Of a stretch of 64,000 nucleotides of DNA, positions 16,052 through 27,918 are shown piece after piece. Under the pieces are notes generated by a model, which saw only the letters and a list, made by a program, of their open reading frames with translations, did no database searches and was not told the origin of the DNA. Source of the stretch: a virus. Both the position numbers and the translations under genes were made by a program. The stretch lies in IMG/VR virus record IMGVR_UViG_3300028654_000009, one strand, 5' to 3'. How positions within the stretch are numbered: position 1 is the first letter of the stretch; each line of letters starts with the position of its first letter.

Positions 16052-17443
16052 TTACAGCTGTCCGCGCAAGTTGTCGATCAGCACGTTCTTGCGGGGCTCC
16101 ACAACCGCCAAAGTCAAGAACCGCAGATGCGCCTCGGGGATGCTGAGGTCCGAGACCGCCAGCTTCACTCGGCTGTAAGGGGCAAGCTCCTTCAGCTCCA
16201 TGGTGTCGCCCTGGATGAGATAGCCCGTCACGAAGCCCGGGAGCTTATTCCCGAGGTCGAGGAAGGTGGTGTTACCCGACACCGCCGAGATAACCCGACC
16301 AACGAACTTGGCCGAGGAGGCCGCGCCGCCAGCGTTCGTGCGGTACACATTGTACCCGCGAACCGTACCAGAACCCGGAGGGGTGATGGTCAGGGTGATC
16401 TTGTCGTTCAGGTTGACCGAGGCCGACGCGATAGAGGCCGAAGCCGGGGACTCGCCGTTCTCGTTGAACGAGGTGACGTAGAAGGTGTAGACGCCAGCCG
16501 CGAGAGCCCCACCGGCGCTGTTGGCAATGCCGAGGGTAGGAGCGGTAGGAGAGTTGGCGCGGGTGCGAGCCGGCTTGCTCTTACCACGAAGGAACTGGCT
16601 GGCCTCGATGTTGACGGTACCACCAGAAACCCACTGCTTGCGGAGGTCGCCACCGGTCGAGTCCTGAGGGGACCCCGCGAGAATTACTCGCTCCTTGCCG
16701 ATAACCAGCTTGTTGTAAGCCGAGAGGACAATCGGGTCAACCAGAAGGCGGTTGGCAGTGCCGAAGTTGAGAGCGCTACGAACCGCCGCGTCCTCAACCT
16801 TGCCCTGGTCCAGGGTGCCGCCGCCCGAGAGAACCACAGAGTCGTCCGAGCCGAACTCTGAGAACATAAGGTCTCGGCTGTTGACCTGCATGTCGCTCTG
16901 ACGAACCTGGAGACCGAGCCCGTGAATGTTCGGGAGGGCCGGGACGGCGAAGGGATTGCCGTCGAACACGCCCGCGTTCGAGAAGTCGTCGATACCACGG
17001 AAGCTGTCGAACTCGATGTCGCCAGCGATCTTCTTGGCAGCGTCAGCAGCGGCGCGCTCGTCGCTCTTCTTGCCGTCAACAGTCGCCACCATCGTCGAAG
17101 CGATGGTCACCCGACGAACGTGGGAGTAGAATGCCATTGGCACCGTAACCCGCACGAAGTCCGAGGTCTCTTCCTGTCCGACCTGGCCTTCGAGCTGGGC
17201 AGACCCGCCGAAGATACCGTAGCTGAGCTGACGGTCGAACTGGTAGAGGGTGGCCTTGCAGGACGAGGTCCCCACGATCTTCTGGAGCTTGATGTGGCTC
17301 TCATCGAAAGTGACGTTGTTCATGACCGGGCTGCAGTCCTCGATTTGAAGGGCAGCACCCTGGGTCAGCGTACTGGGGGCTGCGTCATAGTTGCCAGCCT
17401 CCAACGCCTTCTTAAGTTCAGTAACGGCATCCATTGCGTTCAT
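16052..17443 (-). CDS. Major capsid protein (SPO1/Twort-like, with FN3-like insertion)
   Basis: 463 aa, strong codon bias. Short propeptide ending LKKA, then GAALQIE; FN3-like YTFYVTSFNENGES. Follows the scaffold and precedes a strong terminator. Confidence 0.9.
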   Translation of the reverse strand: MNAMDAVTELKKALEAGNYDAAPSTLTQGAALQIEDCSPVMNNVTFDESHIKLQKIVGTSSCKATLYQFDRQLSYGIFGGSAQLEGQVGQEETSDFVRVTVPMAFYSHVRRVTIASTMVATVDGKKSDERAAADAAKKIAGDIEFDSFRGIDDFSNAGVFDGNPFAVPALPNIHGLGLQVRQSDMQVNSRDLMFSEFGSDDSVVLSGGGTLDQGKVEDAAVRSALNFGTANRLLVDPIVLSAYNKLVIGKERVILAGSPQDSTGGDLRKQWVSGGTVNIEASQFLRGKSKPARTRANSPTAPTLGIANSAGGALAAGVYTFYVTSFNENGESPASASIASASVNLNDKITLTITPPGSGTVRGYNVYRTNAGGAASSAKFVGRVISAVSGNTTFLDLGNKLPGFVTGYLIQGDTMELKELAPYSRVKLAVSDLSIPEAHLRFLTLAVVEPRKNVLIDNLRGQL

Positions 17444-17485: not shown

Positions 17486-18442
17486 TTAGGCGAGGAACTT
17501 GGCGATATCGTCAATTCCTGCGGACCCAACAACAAACTTGTTGATGAGGTCTCGGTCAGATTTGGCAAGCTTCGAAGAGGAGGTTGCCTTGTTGAGCTTC
17601 TCAATCACTTGCGACTTCGTAAGCGACCGGGGATCAACAGGGGCCTTCTCGGCCGGCTTATCGGTGGTACCAGGCTTGCTGATGTAGGAAATCCCAGCGA
17701 CAGACTTCCGCATGACCTGGCGCTTGGTCACCATATCGGTGATTGCCTTGATGGTCTCGGCCATGGCCACTTCCTGCTTGGCAAGCTGGTCGTCCTTCTC
17801 TTTGATCGACTTGCGCAGCTTGCTGATTTCAGACATCTGAGACTTGGCCATTCCGCCGTTCCCGTCATTGGGAGTCCCAGTGCTGATTTCGCCCTTGCCG
17901 ATTCCCGGCGGAGGACCGCCAGCTCCCGGCGGAGGACCGCCGGCCGAAGCCTCGGGGCCCGGGGGAGGGCCGGCCGATGCGTCAGGGCCCGGAGGGCCTG
18001 CAGAGGCCTCAGGACCGCCCGCCTCGGGGCCGCCACCCTGCGATTCCATCGCCATGAGGGCGGCGTGGGCTGCCATCAGGTGCATCTTCAGCTCTTCAGG
18101 CGGGAGCTTCATGTACTCGGCCTGGAGTGCTTCCGGAGTGGCGCCGGCATCTGTCGCCGGGTCCTGGCCGCCGTCTGGACCGCCGTCCATCGGGGGCGCT
18201 GAGCCCTCGGCAGAAGCGTCGGCAGAAGCGTCGGGAGCGCCAGAATCCTCGGGACCGGCGCTCGACTGCTCGCCCGGAGGTCCGTCAGTCGCGCTTCCGT
18301 CCGGAGTGGTCTCGGCAGTGGTCTCTTCGCCAGGGTCGGCCTTGGAAAGGGTCACTTCCTCCGTATCGGACTTGAGCATGACGGCGACATCGTTAGTCAC
18401 CTGCTCAAGCAACTTGTTGATTTGAGATTTCGAGAGCTTCAT
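17486..18442 (-). CDS. Capsid scaffolding protein
   Basis: Acidic Pro/Gly-rich and coiled-coil, directly upstream of the MCP. About 9 x-x-K-[AS] motifs (LSKS, MLKS, LSKA, MAKS, LRKS, MRKS, LTKS, LNKA, LAKS). Confidence 0.75.
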   Translation of the reverse strand: MKLSKSQINKLLEQVTNDVAVMLKSDTEEVTLSKADPGEETTAETTPDGSATDGPPGEQSSAGPEDSGAPDASADASAEGSAPPMDGGPDGGQDPATDAGATPEALQAEYMKLPPEELKMHLMAAHAALMAMESQGGGPEAGGPEASAGPPGPDASAGPPPGPEASAGGPPPGAGGPPPGIGKGEISTGTPNDGNGGMAKSQMSEISKLRKSIKEKDDQLAKQEVAMAETIKAITDMVTKRQVMRKSVAGISYISKPGTTDKPAEKAPVDPRSLTKSQVIEKLNKATSSSKLAKSDRDLINKFVVGSAGIDDIAKFLA

Positions 18443-19398: not shown

Positions 19399-20261
19399 GC
19401 GGCCGGCCTCCAGCGCTCGATCCGAAACATCTGGGCACCGTAATGGAGCTTTACGGCTCCGGGCTGGGAACTACCAAAATTGGAAAGCAACTAGGGGTAA
19501 GCTCCAGGGCGGTTCGCTACTTGATGAAACAGAGCGGCATCCCCCTCAGGAGGGATGATTTCGCCAAACTAGTTATCAATGACGGCTTCTTCGACGAAAT
19601 TGACACGCCAGAGAAGGCATATTGGCTGGGCATATTGATTACCGATGGGAATGTGTCTGGGACCCGAATAACGCTGAACCTGAAAGATCGGGAGCATCTG
19701 GTAAAGTTCGCTGAAGCTCTAGGAGGCGGCCAGACACTATCTATCAAAGCAAAACACAAACAAATGGAAGGTCGGGATGTGGTTTGCTTCAACCTCCAGT
19801 TTAGAAGCAAACACATGGCCGGAGCGCTGTCAAAATACGGGGTCGTCCCTCGCAAAAGTGCAACATCATACCCATGGAACGGTCCGGCTGAATTGATGCC
19901 ACACTTTTGGAGAGGGTGTGTGGACGGCGATGGGTGGATTACTGAGATAAAGCCAGGTAGGTTTGCTATTGGTCTGTGTGGAACAAAAGCGATGACACAA
20001 GCGTTCTCAGACTTTTCTTATTCTGTCACTGGGGTTGCTCACAAAATCAAAGCACAGGGCAACATTTTTGTTTGCAGCGTCGGCAGCATAGAGGTGGTCC
20101 GAAAGTTGGCAATTTGCCTGTATGGAAACCTAGATAAGGCTAGTAGCCTTGACAGAAAGCTGGATAAAGCTATTTTGGCGATGGGGGCTTTGGTCCAGCA
20201 ACCCCCGCCTGGGCGCCCGAAGAAGGCAAAGCCCCAGCTGGTGGGGCCCCAGAATCAATAG
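19395..20261 (+). mobile_element. Free-standing LAGLIDADG homing endonuclease
   Basis: N-terminal HTH, YWLGILITDG and FWRGCVDGDG motifs. ATGA coupling at 19395. Confidence 0.85.
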
Positions 20262-23200
20262 GCATAGGTCCTTCATGTCCTGGTACCAAACTGTGGACAA
20301 AATTCGGAGTTTTTTGAGGCGAGTACATTGCTTTCCGTTTTGTCCCCAAAACCTTGTTGAACAGGCTCGGTGCTGCAAACTTTTGCTCCTTTGCCATACC
20401 CAAAGCTTTGTCTGCTGTTTCGAAGTTGTGGCCGAGACCAAACGACATTGACAGCTTGTGCTGGCCATTGACCGGAGGAAGGGCTTCCAACCCGGCCTTT
20501 GCGTGTCGGATAAATTGCGCTGCGTGCTCGTGCGTAGGTGCCCAGAACGACATTTCGTCTCCTCCGCTGCGCCATGCCTTCCCCGTCCCCACCTTAGCCG
20601 CTGCATCACGAAACGCTCCGCCCATAGCCTTGATAGCACTGTCGCCAGCATCGTGACCGTGGATGTCGTTCACCTGCTTGAAGCTGTTCCCGTCAGCGGA
20701 CACCCAAACACCAGGCCGGTTCTCCTCGCGAAATTCCGACGCAGCCCTCTTGTTACCGATGCCCGGTATCATCGGGTCGCCGTAAAATCCATGAACCAGG
20801 GCTCTGGTAATCGGGTGGTCGTGCCCATGAATCTGACGTGCCTGAGCGATAGCCGTACGGTGATCGGGCACCGTAGGCTCGGGGGGCAGGTGTAGGGTCT
20901 CCTCGTCCTTCCTCATTTCGGAAGACATTTTCTTGTATCGCACAGTACCAATTCCGGTCTTGGCATTGTGTAAGATTAGCTGAAGTTCGCCCTCGGTCAA
21001 GGCGTGGCCGTCCATCGCTGCTCCATGCGGCCCAAACTCAATCGTGTGTGGCTTGACCATGCCCGGTCGGTGGAACTCGAACACCGAATTAGGCTTCGGC
21101 ATCGGCATTTTCATGACCGTCAGCTCTGGAACCGGATTGGGCTTCGCGACCTCGGTGGAGGGGGTCGTTTCGGTGACCGAGAAATTGGGACTCCACTTGA
21201 GGCCATGAAGCCCAGCGATAGCCGAAGCGTCCATCTTGCCCTCGGGAACCATTGCATGCAGAAGGCCGTGGTAGTCTTCCAGGTGGTGGACGACATCACG
21301 ACTGACCGAGAACCGGCCCGCCGGGTGAATTTTGTCGCCATGCTTGATGCCTACCGAATAGATAGTCGGCATATCAATTTTGGGCTCAATGGCGTCCGCA
21401 ATATCTTTCCTCAGGTCGATGAGAGCTGCTTCCATCTCCCTGGCCTTGGCCAAGAACTCCATGTTCTGGCCATTCCTCTCTCGATGCTCGGCAGCTTCGA
21501 GGAGCTTGGGGACCAAGTGGTGATAATACAAGAACTGAGCGGGGATCTCTCCGTACTTTTCCACATAGCTTTGGTGAACCAATGCCGTGCGCAAAGACGT
21601 TCCGGAATCGGGCTCGTCACTCTTCTGGACCGGATCAATCCAAGGCTTGATAGAGTCCCAAAATGGTTCATGGTGGGTCCCCGACTGCTTGCCCTTGTTG
21701 GTCATACCCACAAACTGCTCGTGCGGACGAATCGTAATCCAGTGTCGCCAGAAAGCAGGGAACAAGGCGTCCTTGGGGTCCTCGAACGTTGAACCCCACT
21801 TTGGGTGATTAAGAGTGTATTTTACGGCCGGGTGGTTCTTGGCGTACCAGTCGTTATACGGCCTCATTATGGTATCGATGTTGTTGGGGTTCCACAGCAT
21901 GTTCTTCAGGTAAGTGAGGGTCCGCTTATCTTTCATTACGTGCAGACCGAACATGTTGCGGATAAAGTGAGTATCAGGTACAACCGAGTCGCCACCACCC
22001 AACATCCCATAGGTGTAAAGACCAGTTTTGACCGCAAGACCCGGGACAGCGGTAAACGGAGACTCCCCTGGGTCAGGTTTACCCAGCAGTTTAGCTCGCT
22101 CACGCTTGGCCTCCCACAGTTGACCCTTGTGTTTGTTTCCCATTAGCTCGGAAACGGCGTCGAGGGCGTGATGACGGTGTCGGGATACCAGGTCGACGAG
22201 ACCGTGATGCAAAGAATGATAACGAGATAAGTTTTTGAATGACCCTTCCATCAGGGGAGTCGTGCCGGGCAGCTCGCCAGCATACCGACCAGCGGCCGTT
22301 GGGTCGCCTGGGAACTCTCCCCATTCATCGTGGCGAATACCGATACGGTTGCCCACATAATAGGCCGGGTTTGTAGCGAACGCTTCTTTACCGGTCTCGG
22401 GCAGCGTATTCGGAGAGTCCAATTCTCTGAATTTTGGCTCAATCGCCGAGAAGCCCGGATTTCTCGGATCAAGACCGGTGGCGTGCATGGCGTCCACAAG
22501 TCTAGCGTACTGTAGCTCCTGCACCGGGACCGGCCGATTCGGAGACAGCTGGGCAAACATCACGGCATGCATGATGACCTCTGGCGGTAACTTACCGGCC
22601 TTGATCAACTTATGAACCTTGCTCCAGTTGGTCATAGCAGTGTCCATGGCCTTTTCGACTTCTGGAGACTTCAACAATTTCTCATAATTCGCAGCCGATT
22701 CTGGGCCATCATCAGAGGGGAGATAGGCTTTGAAACTTCCCATGGGGGTCCGCAAAACGCCTTTTTTGGGATCAAAAGAGGGGTGTTTGACAGATGGATT
22801 GGGGCGTATTTTGGTTCCTCGGAAGGTGGCAGCCGTAAATTTTGGGGCCTTAGCTTCTTCCTGTTCACTGTCGTCGAAATCCTCAAGGATCGGCTTGTCG
22901 GGTTTCGGGGCCTCCGGGGGCGTCGCAGGCGCGTCGCCCTCTCGCTTAGCCAGAGACTTCTTTACGGTGTACGCCTCCGCGATGTCGGCAAAGTGATTGA
23001 GAAAATCGTCCGACACTTCCGGGAGCTTCGCCTTGGCAAACCCCATGAACTCGCTCCGCGTAAATTTTCGATTACCGAAATCTCGCAAAACAGCCTTGCA
23101 GGTATTCCTGATTCGGTCGTCTACGTGTTCCTTCTGGAGAGCGGCGCCTCCAGTGAGAGAAGATGGAGCCCCTCCACCCATGCCGGCCTCTATCGCCTTG

Positions 23201-23883
23201 CGCACAGTCGAAAGAACCATCGCAGACCGAAGCAAATTGAGAGAAGCCTCGGCCTTGGAATCAATGATTTCGACCTCGGTCTCGTACCCTGATAGTTGGG
23301 CGTACTCGGGGTCGATTATGGACGTGTTTTCAGACTTCTTGAAGCCTTCGGGGGCGTTGGGGTCGGATAGCAGAATGGTGTCGCAAGCTTTGAGACAGGG
23401 TTTGATAGTAATCGCGACTCTGCGGAAGATGCATTGCTTGATAGTGTTACCCTCTTTCTTGAGGGTAGAGCCTTCGATGCTAAACCGACACAGGATCTTC
23501 TCGTCATTGGCCACAGCGTCTCGAATTTGGGCGGCAACGGCCATGGCCTCGGCGTGTCCCGCTCCGTCATACAGACGGACTACCCCAAAAAGGTAGGGCA
23601 CTCTGACCTGGTCCCAGAATTTCTCTTGCTCTGTGGTCTCGCAATCTCCCTTCTTGAAGATTTTTTTAACATAGATGACACGGCCAATGGTTTCCTTACC
23701 AAAGCCAGTTTCGGCGTCAACGTGTTCCCAGTTAACGGTAGCTGTCCCCTCTTCTGCACTAGAAATATCAATACCGTCTAGCTCGACAGTCTCACCGCTG
23801 CTATCAATAAGTTCAGCACTGAAGATGCCTCCCAGCAACATCCCAGTTTTGGATTCTTTCGGCTGGTCTCTTGGATTGCTCAT
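20170..23883 (-). CDS. Prohead protease fused to HhH-GPD DNA glycosylase and GGDEF domain
   Basis: Protease DSSGE...VNWEH...FSIEG. Glycosylase VPGLAVKT...VVPDTHFIR. GGDEF DGNSFKQVNDIHGHDAGD...RSGGDEM. Located between MuF/portal and scaffold/MCP. Confidence 0.85.
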   Translation of the reverse strand: MSNPRDQPKESKTGMLLGGIFSAELIDSSGETVELDGIDISSAEEGTATVNWEHVDAETGFGKETIGRVIYVKKIFKKGDCETTEQEKFWDQVRVPYLFGVVRLYDGAGHAEAMAVAAQIRDAVANDEKILCRFSIEGSTLKKEGNTIKQCIFRRVAITIKPCLKACDTILLSDPNAPEGFKKSENTSIIDPEYAQLSGYETEVEIIDSKAEASLNLLRSAMVLSTVRKAIEAGMGGGAPSSLTGGAALQKEHVDDRIRNTCKAVLRDFGNRKFTRSEFMGFAKAKLPEVSDDFLNHFADIAEAYTVKKSLAKREGDAPATPPEAPKPDKPILEDFDDSEQEEAKAPKFTAATFRGTKIRPNPSVKHPSFDPKKGVLRTPMGSFKAYLPSDDGPESAANYEKLLKSPEVEKAMDTAMTNWSKVHKLIKAGKLPPEVIMHAVMFAQLSPNRPVPVQELQYARLVDAMHATGLDPRNPGFSAIEPKFRELDSPNTLPETGKEAFATNPAYYVGNRIGIRHDEWGEFPGDPTAAGRYAGELPGTTPLMEGSFKNLSRYHSLHHGLVDLVSRHRHHALDAVSELMGNKHKGQLWEAKRERAKLLGKPDPGESPFTAVPGLAVKTGLYTYGMLGGGDSVVPDTHFIRNMFGLHVMKDKRTLTYLKNMLWNPNNIDTIMRPYNDWYAKNHPAVKYTLNHPKWGSTFEDPKDALFPAFWRHWITIRPHEQFVGMTNKGKQSGTHHEPFWDSIKPWIDPVQKSDEPDSGTSLRTALVHQSYVEKYGEIPAQFLYYHHLVPKLLEAAEHRERNGQNMEFLAKAREMEAALIDLRKDIADAIEPKIDMPTIYSVGIKHGDKIHPAGRFSVSRDVVHHLEDYHGLLHAMVPEGKMDASAIAGLHGLKWSPNFSVTETTPSTEVAKPNPVPELTVMKMPMPKPNSVFEFHRPGMVKPHTIEFGPHGAAMDGHALTEGELQLILHNAKTGIGTVRYKKMSSEMRKDEETLHLPPEPTVPDHRTAIAQARQIHGHDHPITRALVHGFYGDPMIPGIGNKRAASEFREENRPGVWVSADGNSFKQVNDIHGHDAGDSAIKAMGGAFRDAAAKVGTGKAWRSGGDEMSFWAPTHEHAAQFIRHAKAGLEALPPVNGQHKLSMSFGLGHNFETADKALGMAKEQKFAAPSLFNKVLGTKRKAMYSPQKTPNFVHSLVPGHEGPMPIDSGAPPAGALPSSGAQAGVAGPKPPSPK

Positions 23884-23910
23884 GATATCCAACCAAGATT
23901 CGGCTGGAGC

Positions 23911-24114
23911 TTAATTCGTCTCGAAACGGACAGCCGAAACGACGCGCTGGATCTGGACGTCTTCGACATCACAAGGAGCCAGGTCGTTCTTCCCGATGAC
24001 ATCCGCCCATTCGTCAAGCTCTTCTGGAGGCGGCGGTCTGAAGTCGTCGGCCACTTGGATCTCGTAAACGGAAGTGGCCATCTCCTGGACTACTACACGG
24101 TAGGTCTTACTCAA
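23911..24114 (-). CDS. Small hypothetical protein
   Basis: Start re-called to TTG 24114 after a GGGGAG RBS. Confidence 0.55.
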   Translation of the reverse strand: MSKTYRVVVQEMATSVYEIQVADDFRPPPPEELDEWADVIGKNDLAPCDVEDVQIQRVVSAVRFETN

Positions 24115-24886
24115 CGTCTCCCCCTTCTCTTTGTTGTTTGTATTCGTCGTGGTCCTTGGACTTGAAAGTGACGAAACCGTTGCTATTAAAACCAAATCCG
24201 GGCATGAGGATGGTCATGCTGCACCTACAATTTGGGTGCAGGACGGTACAGGGATGATCGTCGCCCCGCTTCCAGTAGCCTGAGCCCACCTCGGACAGTT
24301 TCCACACCCTGGGGGTAGTCTGGTCCGGCAAAAGGAACAAGCTCGTGCAGTCTTCGCACCGAGACTTGTCCCTGACCGTCACCCAAAACACTGTCGGGTC
24401 TTGCTGGCTGGTAGCCGCAGCGATTTTTGAGATTCCGTCAAGAGTGCCCATATTCCGAGCGCGGGTGGACTCTGTATCGACGATTCGGCGCACGTCCGAC
24501 GTGACTTTACCCATGACCTCGCCAAGCTCGTCACCCAGAACCTGGTGAAAATTGGCGCTTTCGCCTTTGGCCTCAGCATCATGAAGGGTGGCCTGGACCG
24601 TGTGTACGATTTTGGCCTTCGCCAGCTCACGGTGAGCGTCGAGGTATTGTTCGGCGACGGATTTCAGGCTGTCCCGAAGCTTCTCCGAGGGAGTAAACCC
24701 TTCGCTCCTGGTGGCGTTGTCAAACAGCCCTGGGAGGCTCAGGGTGTCGTTGTGAAGCTTGACACCCACACGGATAGTCTTGTCCTTGCCTGGACCCAGG
24801 AAACGCTGTTTAGCCCTCTGGAATAGGCCGTCGATCGCCGCGTGAATGGCGTTGATGGCCTTCTTCGTGAGGATGAACCGAGGCAC
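24107..24886 (-). CDS. MuF / SPP1 gp7-like minor head morphogenesis protein
   Basis: RIVDTE...RCEDC...LHPNCRC signature. Confidence 0.85.
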   Translation of the reverse strand: MPRFILTKKAINAIHAAIDGLFQRAKQRFLGPGKDKTIRVGVKLHNDTLSLPGLFDNATRSEGFTPSEKLRDSLKSVAEQYLDAHRELAKAKIVHTVQATLHDAEAKGESANFHQVLGDELGEVMGKVTSDVRRIVDTESTRARNMGTLDGISKIAAATSQQDPTVFWVTVRDKSRCEDCTSLFLLPDQTTPRVWKLSEVGSGYWKRGDDHPCTVLHPNCRCSMTILMPGFGFNSNGFVTFKSKDHDEYKQQREGGDVE

Positions 24887-25794: not shown

Positions 25795-27918
25795 TTATTT
25801 CTTCTTGAAGTGCGCGGCCACGTCGAGAATCTCTTTTACGGCCGCCTTCGAGTCTTCCTCCCACCCGTCCATAAAGTGCTCGACAGTCTTGTTGTGTTGT
25901 GCTAAGAGCCGCCGCTTGTCCGGCGGGAGCTGCATCTCGTGCTTGCTCAGGGCGTCAAAGGCGATATCGATCGAGCGAGCCAGGTCCGAGGCTCCTGAAC
26001 CAGTCGCCCCTTGCCCCGAGGCGTCTGGGCTGGCCGCCGACTGCTGTTTCTGGGTGGGCTCTGGAGTGTTCTGGCCGCCGGCTGAAGGTCCCTGTGACGG
26101 GTCTCCCCCGCCTCCTGGCTGCCCTCCTGGGGCCCCTCCACCGCCGCCCCCATCCTGTGGGGGCCCGCCACCCTGGGCCTGCTGCTGCTGGGCCATCTGG
26201 GCCTGTTGCTGCGCTTGCTGTTGCTGGACCCACTGGAACCAGAATGGGTCTCTCACGTAGGCCAGATTGGGGTCCTTGCTGGCCCCCTCACGGCCGCAGA
26301 AGTGCTCCAGAATTTGGCCGACGGTGAAATACTGGTCGAGGTAGGTCTTGAACACCGGATTAAGCGGGATTGTGCCGCCCCATGCCTTGCCAACCGGCGG
26401 CTTCTCGACTCGCTCCGAGATGTCGTCATAGTTCATCCAGATCGACATGTCCTGCTGGGTCCGGACGGCTTCTTTCTCGGCGTTGTCGGATTCGAGACCG
26501 ACGAGCCTTACCGAGGCCTTCTTGGACAACTTAGGGTCGATGAGGGGGAACAGGTGCTGGTTGATGAAGTCTTCGAAATTCTTCAGCAGCGGCCGGATAC
26601 CGACATCCCGGGCCGCCGTCATTTTGTACTCGTTGTTGCTCTCCGACAGGGCCTGATTGTTGGTGCCCTTAGACAGATATGACCATCCAGGTAGTTCGTC
26701 TGGAGACATCATGAATGCAGTTAGGATTTCCCGAGCATTCAAATCGCACAGGTACTGAAACTCCATATCCTTCCCCCCGCCCGTATCGATAGGCTTCCAA
26801 TCAATACTTTCATCGACGCCACAACCAAACACTGGCATGCGCCACGAGTTATTGACGCTGTTGATGCTAGCGTTGAACTGTTGCTTGATATTGTGGATGA
26901 CCTGTGGGTTAGCATCCTCGGACGAAATCACCAGCATGCCGCGAGCGGCGCGGCCTGATTGAAAGTAGAGCTTGTTGTGTTGGGTCAGATTAATGTGCGT
27001 GGTCACCGCACTGATGATCGTGTCGATAGGCGTGACGGGATACCCGTCTAGCTCGACGTCTGGAACTGGGTAGCAGTTGTAGACCGACATCTCCTCGGCC
27101 GTGAACGCCTGCTTAGGAGTTCCTTCTACCACCTGTACATAGCAATAGTCGCCGGCCTCGTACTTCTCTTTCTCCAGCTTTTTGCCGGTGATTCTGCAAA
27201 GAAGGTGGTACGCGTCTTGGCGAACGGACTCTAGGCTATCCTGGTTGGAAGGAGCTGCGTCATAAATCGTTCCCGCATCGACGGCGACGAAGTGGTGGAA
27301 CTTTTTCTTGCCCGGAGAGTCCGGGTCATCGATCCAGACTTTTTCACAGGCGATTCGTCCGACGACCAAAGCGTTTCGGGCCTGGAGGGCCAGGAACTCG
27401 GAGAAAGTAGTAACCATATCTAGGCCCGTCGTTTCGCCACACAGGTTGAGTTTCTTGACGGCCCGGTCGATCTGGACATTGAATTCCTTTTTCTCCTCGG
27501 GCGACATCTTGTCCAGCTCGCCTGTATTCGCCTTGATGACGAACCCCGTAGAGAAACGGTCTTCACGGGGGCGCCCGAACGAACTGAGGTGGTTCTGGCG
27601 AGCCCTTACAATGTTTGAAACCAACGAGTCCTGGATTGCAATGCGCTTGAGCATTGCGTCCGGGATGAGTCGCATCTTGGCGCGGTAAACGCCACTGTAA
27701 GTATTATTGAGAGTCGGGTCGGTTTCGAACGATAGCCTTTCTACGCTATCATTACCCTGCCCGTTAAGGACGTTGAGGATCGATTTGGTGAGACTTGGCT
27801 TGTCCTCCCCTGTGCGAACGTACACCATTGACTTGGCCAGGTTCGCAGAAAGTTGCTCCTCGTTGAGCCCCAGTCCGTAAGTCAGGTTGGAGGTGGATTT
27901 TGGGGTTCGCCTTTTCAT
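25795..27918 (-). CDS. Portal protein
   Basis: 707 aa. YPVTPID...YFQSG...DMEFQ...MSPDEL...GIRPLL pattern; two genes downstream of the terminase; Q/G/P-rich tail. Confidence 0.9.
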   Translation of the reverse strand: MKRRTPKSTSNLTYGLGLNEEQLSANLAKSMVYVRTGEDKPSLTKSILNVLNGQGNDSVERLSFETDPTLNNTYSGVYRAKMRLIPDAMLKRIAIQDSLVSNIVRARQNHLSSFGRPREDRFSTGFVIKANTGELDKMSPEEKKEFNVQIDRAVKKLNLCGETTGLDMVTTFSEFLALQARNALVVGRIACEKVWIDDPDSPGKKKFHHFVAVDAGTIYDAAPSNQDSLESVRQDAYHLLCRITGKKLEKEKYEAGDYCYVQVVEGTPKQAFTAEEMSVYNCYPVPDVELDGYPVTPIDTIISAVTTHINLTQHNKLYFQSGRAARGMLVISSEDANPQVIHNIKQQFNASINSVNNSWRMPVFGCGVDESIDWKPIDTGGGKDMEFQYLCDLNAREILTAFMMSPDELPGWSYLSKGTNNQALSESNNEYKMTAARDVGIRPLLKNFEDFINQHLFPLIDPKLSKKASVRLVGLESDNAEKEAVRTQQDMSIWMNYDDISERVEKPPVGKAWGGTIPLNPVFKTYLDQYFTVGQILEHFCGREGASKDPNLAYVRDPFWFQWVQQQQAQQQAQMAQQQQAQGGGPPQDGGGGGGAPGGQPGGGGDPSQGPSAGGQNTPEPTQKQQSAASPDASGQGATGSGASDLARSIDIAFDALSKHEMQLPPDKRRLLAQHNKTVEHFMDGWEEDSKAAVKEILDVAAHFKKK

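Follow-up and report, generated by a model that had tools for sequence, protein, structure and literature searches.

It is already known that some prohead proteases are loaded through a C-terminal part and that they cut themselves, as in HK97 gp4, SPN3US gp245, and the release site of herpesvirus pUL26 (assemblin). In HK97, where gp5 is cleaved at K103/S104 (a slash marks a cut bond throughout), the tail of the protease is thought to bind the delta (scaffold) domain of the major capsid protein (MCP). This protease is said, in work attributed to Duda, Oh, and Hendrix in 2013, to be encapsidated via its C-terminal part and later to destroy itself; its tail is not known to imitate an MCP arm. In the herpesvirus protein, an N-terminal protease is followed by a self-cut release site directly behind the catalytic domain and by a C-terminal part that is the scaffold, with an MCP-binding tail. 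In phage T4, a short cleavable tag, the capsid-targeting sequence of the internal proteins and Alt, loads enzymes for injection. Salmonella phage SPN3US gp245, a T4 gp21-type protease, autocatalytically removes a 64-amino-acid (aa) C-terminal propeptide, apparently needed for its incorporation into the prohead (PMC7411985). Here we analyze a phage locus in which the prohead protease carries, at a predicted self-cleavage site, a copy of the N-terminal arm (N-arm) of the MCP. The locus lies in a stretch of 64,000 nucleotides (the 64-kb window) contained in a 132,208-bp IMG/VR viral contig (record IMGVR_UViG_3300028654_000009). The nearest cultured phage is Myxococcus phage Mx1, with a capsid protein 58% identical and a protease region 36% identical.

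The Herelleviridae (phage 812/K, SPO1 gp6.1) resemble this phage in having a homologous MCP, a homologous S78 protease, a hydrophobic-x-Lys/(Ser or Ala) site, and an arm copy in the protease. They differ in how the protease is built; Herelleviridae proteases are about 250 aa long and end about 50 aa past the copy, whereas the window protein has a linker of about 55 aa before the copy, a different helical domain, and about 900 aa of cargo. The MCP propeptide also differs in length, with 12 aa in the window and 23 to 24 aa in the Herelleviridae. The two proteins and the two peptides compared are as follows.

20170..23892, minus strand: protease polyprotein open reading frame (ORF), 1240 aa, with a TTG start at 23892 (ATG at 23883); collinear with Mx1 WNM70322.1
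23128..23199, minus strand: copy of the MCP N-arm, polyprotein aa 232-255, found by Smith-Waterman comparison and an MCP-peptide profile; low predicted local distance difference test (pLDDT) score, 44-54
16052..17443, minus strand: MCP, 463 aa, SPO1/Twort type with the HK97 fold (phrog_752, 1.1e-45; AlphaFold2 [AF2] model)
17339..17410, minus strand: MCP aa 12-35, the N-arm peptide of which the protease carries a copy (30-MCP alignment)

The original prediction had noticed that a 24-residue segment of the MCP recurs in the protease, and this likeness was confirmed. MCP aa 12-35 and polyprotein aa 232-255 are identical at 16 of 24 positions when both are read on the minus strand; a plus-strand reading of the same two intervals gives unrelated peptides and was discarded. 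Aligned to the polyprotein, the MCP segment has a Smith-Waterman score of 69, compared with 39 for the next-best ORF of the genome and 48 for the best of 20 shuffled queries. A search profile made only from the MCP peptides of 13 other genomes was run against the six-frame translation of the whole 132-kb genome; it found the MCP with an E value of 1e-15 and the protease copy with 1.6e-4, the next match lying at 0.5. No third carrier of the arm peptide was found in this six-frame profile search, and with two copies only, a general leader placed on several head proteins is ruled out. The 72-nucleotide stretches coding for the two peptides share 42 of 72 bases (58%), and the codons agree at only 4 of the 16 identical residues, the synonymous sites being scrambled. 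The likeness is therefore maintained because selection acts on the protein, rather than through recent copying; the same codon comparison rules out recent duplication or gene conversion.

That the duplication might be a family-wide trait of SPO1-like proteases had also been proposed, and it was present in every SPO1/Twort-type phage examined in which both genes were visible. It is carried by 14 nonredundant Mx1-like genomes and by 8 Bacillus/Lysinibacillus-type (Spounavirinae-like) genomes, the latter comprising the cultured phages CP-51, SP-10, and LysYB1 and five IMG/VR loci. Staphylococcus phage 812, Listeria phage WIL-1, and Enterococcus phage phiEF24C carry it as well, so that four subfamilies of the Herelleviridae are covered. 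Each IMG/VR relative with both genes visible has exactly one copy in the MCP and one in the protease. In Mx1 the two copies agree at 19 of 24 residues; in the Herelleviridae pairs the likeness spans 35 to 45 residues, with scores of 97 to 125 against shuffled maxima of 39 to 51. Judged from these alignments, a cut site followed by an N-arm constitutes a predicted family-wide cassette that SPO1/Twort/Mx1-type phages have in both their MCP and their prohead protease.

Aligning the protease and MCP segments across related phages, suggested at the outset as a check for covariation, showed by permutation that the protease copy tracks its cognate MCP in both sets of genomes. In the Mx1-like set (14 genomes), cognate pairs share on average 16.36 of 24 residues, compared with 14.77 for noncognate pairs, a value reached by 2 of 100,000 permutations. 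In the Bacillus/Lysinibacillus-type set (8 genomes), the figures are 16.62 and 14.75, with 485 of 100,000 permutations reaching the observed value. Paralogues that drift independently should lack such a cognate excess, and thus the excess represents covariation of the two copies. States private to one genome are found in both of its copies, as with Trp3 and Thr21 in L026 and Leu5 in L015. These comparisons show a protease copy that coevolves with the cognate MCP arm.

What the copied peptide does in the MCP can be read, by homology, from capsid structures. The AF2 model of the window MCP, which matches phrog_752, aligns with the SPO1 capsid chain 9vel_A with a VIA-align Z of 30.8 and a root mean square deviation of 4.7 over 391 residues, and with phi812 5lii with a Z of 23.2. 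The peptide lies directly behind a predicted propeptide.

17408..17443, minus strand: predicted MCP propeptide, 12 aa, ending L10-K11-K12/A13 (invariant residues; alignment to phage 812 K24/S25 and SPO1 K23/A24)

Residues L10, K12, and A13 are invariant among 30 MCPs, and L10-K11-K12/A13 is the single hydrophobic-x-K-[AS] site of the window MCP. For the phage 812-type MCP, the PDB has a chain of 463 aa (5lii) and a chain of 439 aa (9row_B); the latter begins at S25, right after Val-Val-Lys24, and K24 aligns with K12 of the window MCP. The SPO1 chain 9vel_A has 434 modelled residues, from about 28 to 462. It starts five residues past the aligned K23 and includes the rest of the shared peptide, up to and past the aligned Glu. 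In Listeria phage WIL-1 the aligned bond is Lys23/Ser24, and a Lys23/Ser24 bond is reportedly the one cleaved in Cps of phage A511. The start of 9row_B and the modelled range of 9vel_A therefore place the beginning of the peptide at the cut and keep it on the mature MCP as an ordered N-arm. The earlier assignment of the peptide as an N-arm starting at the predicted cleavage site holds on these grounds, together with the invariant L-x-K-A. By homology with phage 812 and SPO1, the window peptide is predicted to be the retained N-arm of the mature subunit.

A second likely substrate of the protease is encoded next to the MCP.

17486..18442, minus strand: 318-aa scaffold-like protein carrying 9 hydrophobic-x-K-[AS] sites; syntenic with the ORF that precedes the MCP in Mx1

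Its 9 sites compare with 1.09 expected, and none of 2,000 shuffles reaches 9; similar excesses occur in the scaffolds of phage 812 (7 versus 1.2 expected) and EF24C (6 versus 0.86). The polyprotein has 9 such sites, versus 3.55 expected (P about 0.01). The long middle of the scaffold-like protein is rich in Pro, Gly, Ala, and Glu. Taken from its sequence, this protein looks made for shredding by the head protease. None of the scaffold sites has arm-like sequence past the Lys, and thus the 23 to 37 conserved residues on the P' side are unnecessary for cutting alone. That the scaffold sites are numerous and yet lack the arm argues for a role of the arm in binding, beyond cutting.

The protease domain itself is highly divergent and was identified by indirect means.

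23344..23856, minus strand: S78-type (assemblin-fold) prohead serine protease domain, aa ~13-183 (hhalign, AF2/Foldseek, catalytic residues)
23722-23724, minus strand: catalytic His57, numbered from TTG 23892
23479-23481, minus strand: catalytic Ser138, numbered from TTG 23892

The N-terminal ~180 aa gave no match in Pfam, PHROGs, or PDB sequence searches. The polyprotein is collinear over aa 18-844 (38% identity) with the Mx1 protein annotated as a putative prohead protease, WNM70322.1. A profile-profile comparison (hhalign) of 13 Mx1-like domains with 8 Herelleviridae-type proteases gave 98.4% and an E value of 4.6e-15, and the CP-51 homologue matches PF04586 (Peptidase_S78) at 1e-7, with 32.7 bits against a cut-off of 21. 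The 20 aligned proteases, which come from both clades, all have His57 and Ser138. The AF2 model has a pLDDT above 88 over aa 10-180, and the PDB matches listed by Foldseek are herpesvirus proteases only, with modest E values (best 2pbk_A, E 1.6e-3, probability 1.00, TM 0.39). From sequence profile and model together, the polyprotein N terminus is assigned as an S78/HK97-type prohead serine protease with the assemblin fold, predicted to cut after Lys.

Behind this domain, the AF2 model and the 20-protease alignment give the order as follows: protease, variable low-confidence linker, cut site, arm copy, helical domain, cargo. The elements between the linker and the cargo, besides the arm copy, are these.

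23194..23205, minus strand: predicted self-cleavage site V230-R231-K232/A233, homologous to the MCP site
22936..23121, minus strand: helical C-terminal domain of the protease module, ~65 aa, aa 258-319 (alignment; AF2 helices with pLDDT 80-89)
22954..22965, minus strand: second candidate cleavage site V310-K311-K312/S313, at the end of the helical domain; conserved in cargo-bearing relatives

A hydrophobic-x-K/(A, S, or T) site precedes the arm copy in all of the 25 or more relatives examined. The arm copy has its pLDDT of 44 to 54 in the model of the isolated protease, and in both proteins this region is predicted to be flexible. In one relative (L003:3600-3916), the linker that separates the protease domain from the arm copy is enlarged by an insertion of about 100 aa. 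The helical domain, which has no Pfam or PHROG match, is kept in all Mx1-like proteases, including those without cargo. Two cargo-less proteases of 313 to 318 aa (L004 and L022) retain both the arm peptide and the helical domain; the cassette therefore belongs to the protease and not to the cargo. We also considered that the C-terminal module might be homologous to the C terminus of the scaffold, in the style of lambda C/Nu3; this was ruled out, no similarity between module and scaffold being found in the window or in CP-51.

Mx1 has the second candidate site, as do 8 of the 11 other relatives with cargo; the two cargo-less proteases (L004 and L022) and the five Herelleviridae-like ones lack it. 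Its position changes one part of the original prediction, in which the arm copy was to become the new N terminus of the cargo portion. A predicted cut site does precede the copy, as had been thought, but the helical domain and then the second site separate the copy from the cargo. Since this site lies past the helical domain, the cargo would probably be severed from the arm copy rather than keep it; the enzymatic cargo is, on this sequence pattern, probably cut free at the second site.

We imagine the following sequence of events. Before self-cleavage, the arm copy and the ~65-aa helical domain would serve as a handle, binding in the immature shell whatever partner the MCP arm binds, either a neighboring MCP or the scaffold. 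The protease and its fused cargo would thereby be coassembled like a capsid subunit. In the prohead, the protease would cut itself at K232/A233, freeing the catalytic domain from the C-terminal module, and a cut at K312/S313 would release about 900 aa of enzymatic cargo into the head, presumably to be delivered with the DNA. In D3 Prohead 1, the N-arm's initial ~24 residues, adjoining the cut site, are disordered (PMC12749128), and therefore arm-binding surfaces could be free before maturation. Together with the self-cleavage of gp245, this disorder makes the docking scheme plausible.

Several points weigh against this scheme. In a completed lattice all arm-binding sites are filled by the MCP, and a free docking site is thus an assumption. 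Covariation would be equally expected if the common partner of the two copies were the protease's own substrate groove. The cut site in this phage is transferred by homology from the Herelleviridae, whose MCP is about 25% identical. Neither copy of the peptide is placed confidently by AF2 (pLDDT below 55), 3 of 12 cargo-bearing relatives lack the second site, and in a third, distant group (L037 and L052) the arm similarity is partial and near noise. On balance we lean, without great assurance, toward docking plus release as a whole. A wider proposal is that the arm copy and helical domain insert into the lattice or the scaffold and form a portable, self-excising capsid-loading module in the Herelleviridae and Mx1-like phages, one that sets the copy number of the protease and, in the Mx1-like phages, loads interchangeable enzymes (here the GGDEF-type cyclase, in Mx1 and most relatives the PI3/PI4-kinase-like domain) into the head, to be injected together with the DNA; this we put forward tentatively, as possible rather than probable.

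The alternative that survives best takes the arm copy as an extended substrate or pseudosubstrate. The groove of the protease, or an exosite, would read the P' side of the cut, and the copy would provide efficient self-cleavage or autoinhibition, without docking to the shell. The conserved cut site marks the exact start of both copies, flexibility is predicted for the peptide, as for a substrate, and covariation suits the catalytic domain as partner just as well; removal of a C-terminal part by the protease itself has its precedent in SPN3US gp245. However, the 9 motif sites of the scaffold-like protein do without arm-like P' sequence, so the arm is unnecessary for site recognition, and a likeness of 23 to 37 residues runs well past the usual footprint of a protease. 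The corresponding residues are ordered in the SPO1 capsid, which provides a lattice contact to preserve, and AF2 does not seat the peptide in the active site, although this last is weak evidence. We consider a purely substrate role rather unlikely, if still a serious contender.

The peptide could also be a T4-style propeptide, cut after the Glu of a Leu/Met-Gln-x-Glu motif that resembles the L-x-E of T4 gp21 and then discarded like a targeting sequence. The peptide does end in a Glu that is invariant in 30 MCPs and nearly so in the proteases. Against this, the SPO1 chain, modelled from about residue 28, retains the stretch to and past the aligned Glu, the mature phage 812 chain starts at the start of the peptide and not at its end, and the protease is of the S78/HK97 type, for which a Lys/Ser site is known. 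A general targeting leader would also be expected on more than two proteins of the genome. We find such a propeptide very improbable. Finally, a resemblance without function, arising by chance or low complexity (Ala, Gly, and Ser abound in the peptide, and the genome has a high GC content) or by recent duplication or gene conversion, deserves almost no credence given the independent-profile match with no third hit, its retention in at least 25 genomes of two very distant clades, the 58% identity of the DNA copies with their scrambled synonymous sites, and the cognate covariation in the permutation tests.

With docking plus release as the working scheme, the known systems can be set beside it. 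HK97 gp4/gp5 has the protease family (MEROPS S78) and the Lys/Ser specificity of the window phage, but no separate scaffold and no cargo, both of which are present here. SPN3US gp245 belongs to another protease family and cuts after Glu; its propeptide is not reported to be MCP-like, and it has no fused cargo. Herpesvirus pUL26 shares the fold, the N-terminal position of the protease, and the release site directly behind the catalytic domain, yet in the window the scaffold is encoded on its own, and it is the MCP that the proposed handle imitates. A herpesvirus-type fusion of protease and scaffold was accordingly set aside, the module having no similarity to the separate scaffold gene, and the architecture is analogous only. 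The T4 tag has in common with the window the idea of a cargo released by the protease. It is N-terminal, about 10 to 20 aa long, ends in L/I-x-E, is discarded, and occurs on several proteins; in contrast, the window tag is internal, has the cut at its start, resembles a capsid segment that is retained, and is found once outside the MCP. The peptide was thus not classed as a T4-type capsid-targeting sequence: it is internal, the SPO1 capsid keeps the homologous stretch, and the peptide has two carriers in 132 kb. We found no published description of arm imitation in a protease, in a full-text search covering few subscription journals, where absence is weak evidence; nor did this limited literature yield a description of large exchangeable enzymes of the Mx1-like type behind a module with a second site.

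The cargo makes up most of the polyprotein and contains two domains.

20173..22953, minus strand: cargo, aa 314-1240, consisting of a Pro/Ala/Glu-rich linker, a ~480-aa domain, and a divergent GGDEF-type domain
21358-22830, minus strand: ~480-aa domain, aa ~355-845, conserved with Mx1
20422-20736, minus strand: aa 1053-1157, putative nucleotide cyclase domain of a divergent GGDEF type; motif GGDEM at 20551-20565

The ~480-aa domain has no sequence match in Pfam, PHROG, NCBIfam, or PDB. The C-terminal domain matches PF00990 (GGDEF) at 5.5e-9, with 36.4 bits against a cut-off of 23.8, the motif reading GGDEM; diguanylate cyclases in the PDB match to 4e-7, the NCBIfam and PDB matches being below the family cut-offs. 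Going by these matches, the domain would be a putative virion-packaged cyclase. Mx1 (L001:5003-8722) and most relatives have a PI3/PI4-kinase-like segment where the window has the GGDEF domain. This segment forms the C-terminal ~100 aa of the polyproteins L003, L010, L011, L013, L014, L015, L017, and L020, with Pfam E values between 2.5e-7 and 1.2e-4 and scores at or near the gathering threshold. In Mx1 and L003, the homologous cyclase-like protein is instead encoded by a separate gene downstream of the polyprotein. Kinase-like and cyclase-like ends on an otherwise collinear protein mark the polyprotein tail as a site of module exchange.

The head genes around the polyprotein stand in the usual order: portal, minor head protein, scaffold-like protein, and capsid gene.

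25795..27918, minus strand: portal protein, marker of the head module (Pfam Phage_portal, 1.6e-11)

In the interval between portal and polyprotein, a 259-aa ORF (24107-24886, minus strand) shows PHROG matches to the C-terminal parts of portal, "head morphogenesis," and minor head proteins and is syntenic with a hypothetical gene of Mx1. Within the MCP, aa 298-404 (16232-16552, minus strand) form an inserted domain that also matches the PHROGs "esterase/lipase" and "head closure Hc3"; this is probably a shared decoration domain of the immunoglobulin/fibronectin type III (Ig/FN3)-like kind. In the distant group, L037 (1732-3402) and L052 (8443-9897) encode, directly upstream of the capsid gene, a phrog_1028 protease of about 500 aa whose C-terminal extension is long, and in L037 a DUF5661 domain lies directly behind the protease domain. 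The lack of a separate scaffold gene between this protease gene and the capsid gene suggests a fusion of protease and scaffold.

Little is understood of how the protease enters proheads whose scaffold is a separate protein. A handle modeled on the capsid arm would, if true, be a simple and testable answer, and one that would cover a large phage family; the CP-51 protease matches 762 phage records, including the therapeutic Staphylococcus Kayvirus and the Listeria P100/A511 groups. Such a module would also lend itself naturally to use as a tag that carries foreign proteins into these capsids. For the Mx1-like branch, the same handle would explain how large, swappable enzymes, a cyclase here and a kinase-like domain elsewhere, are packaged and then released.

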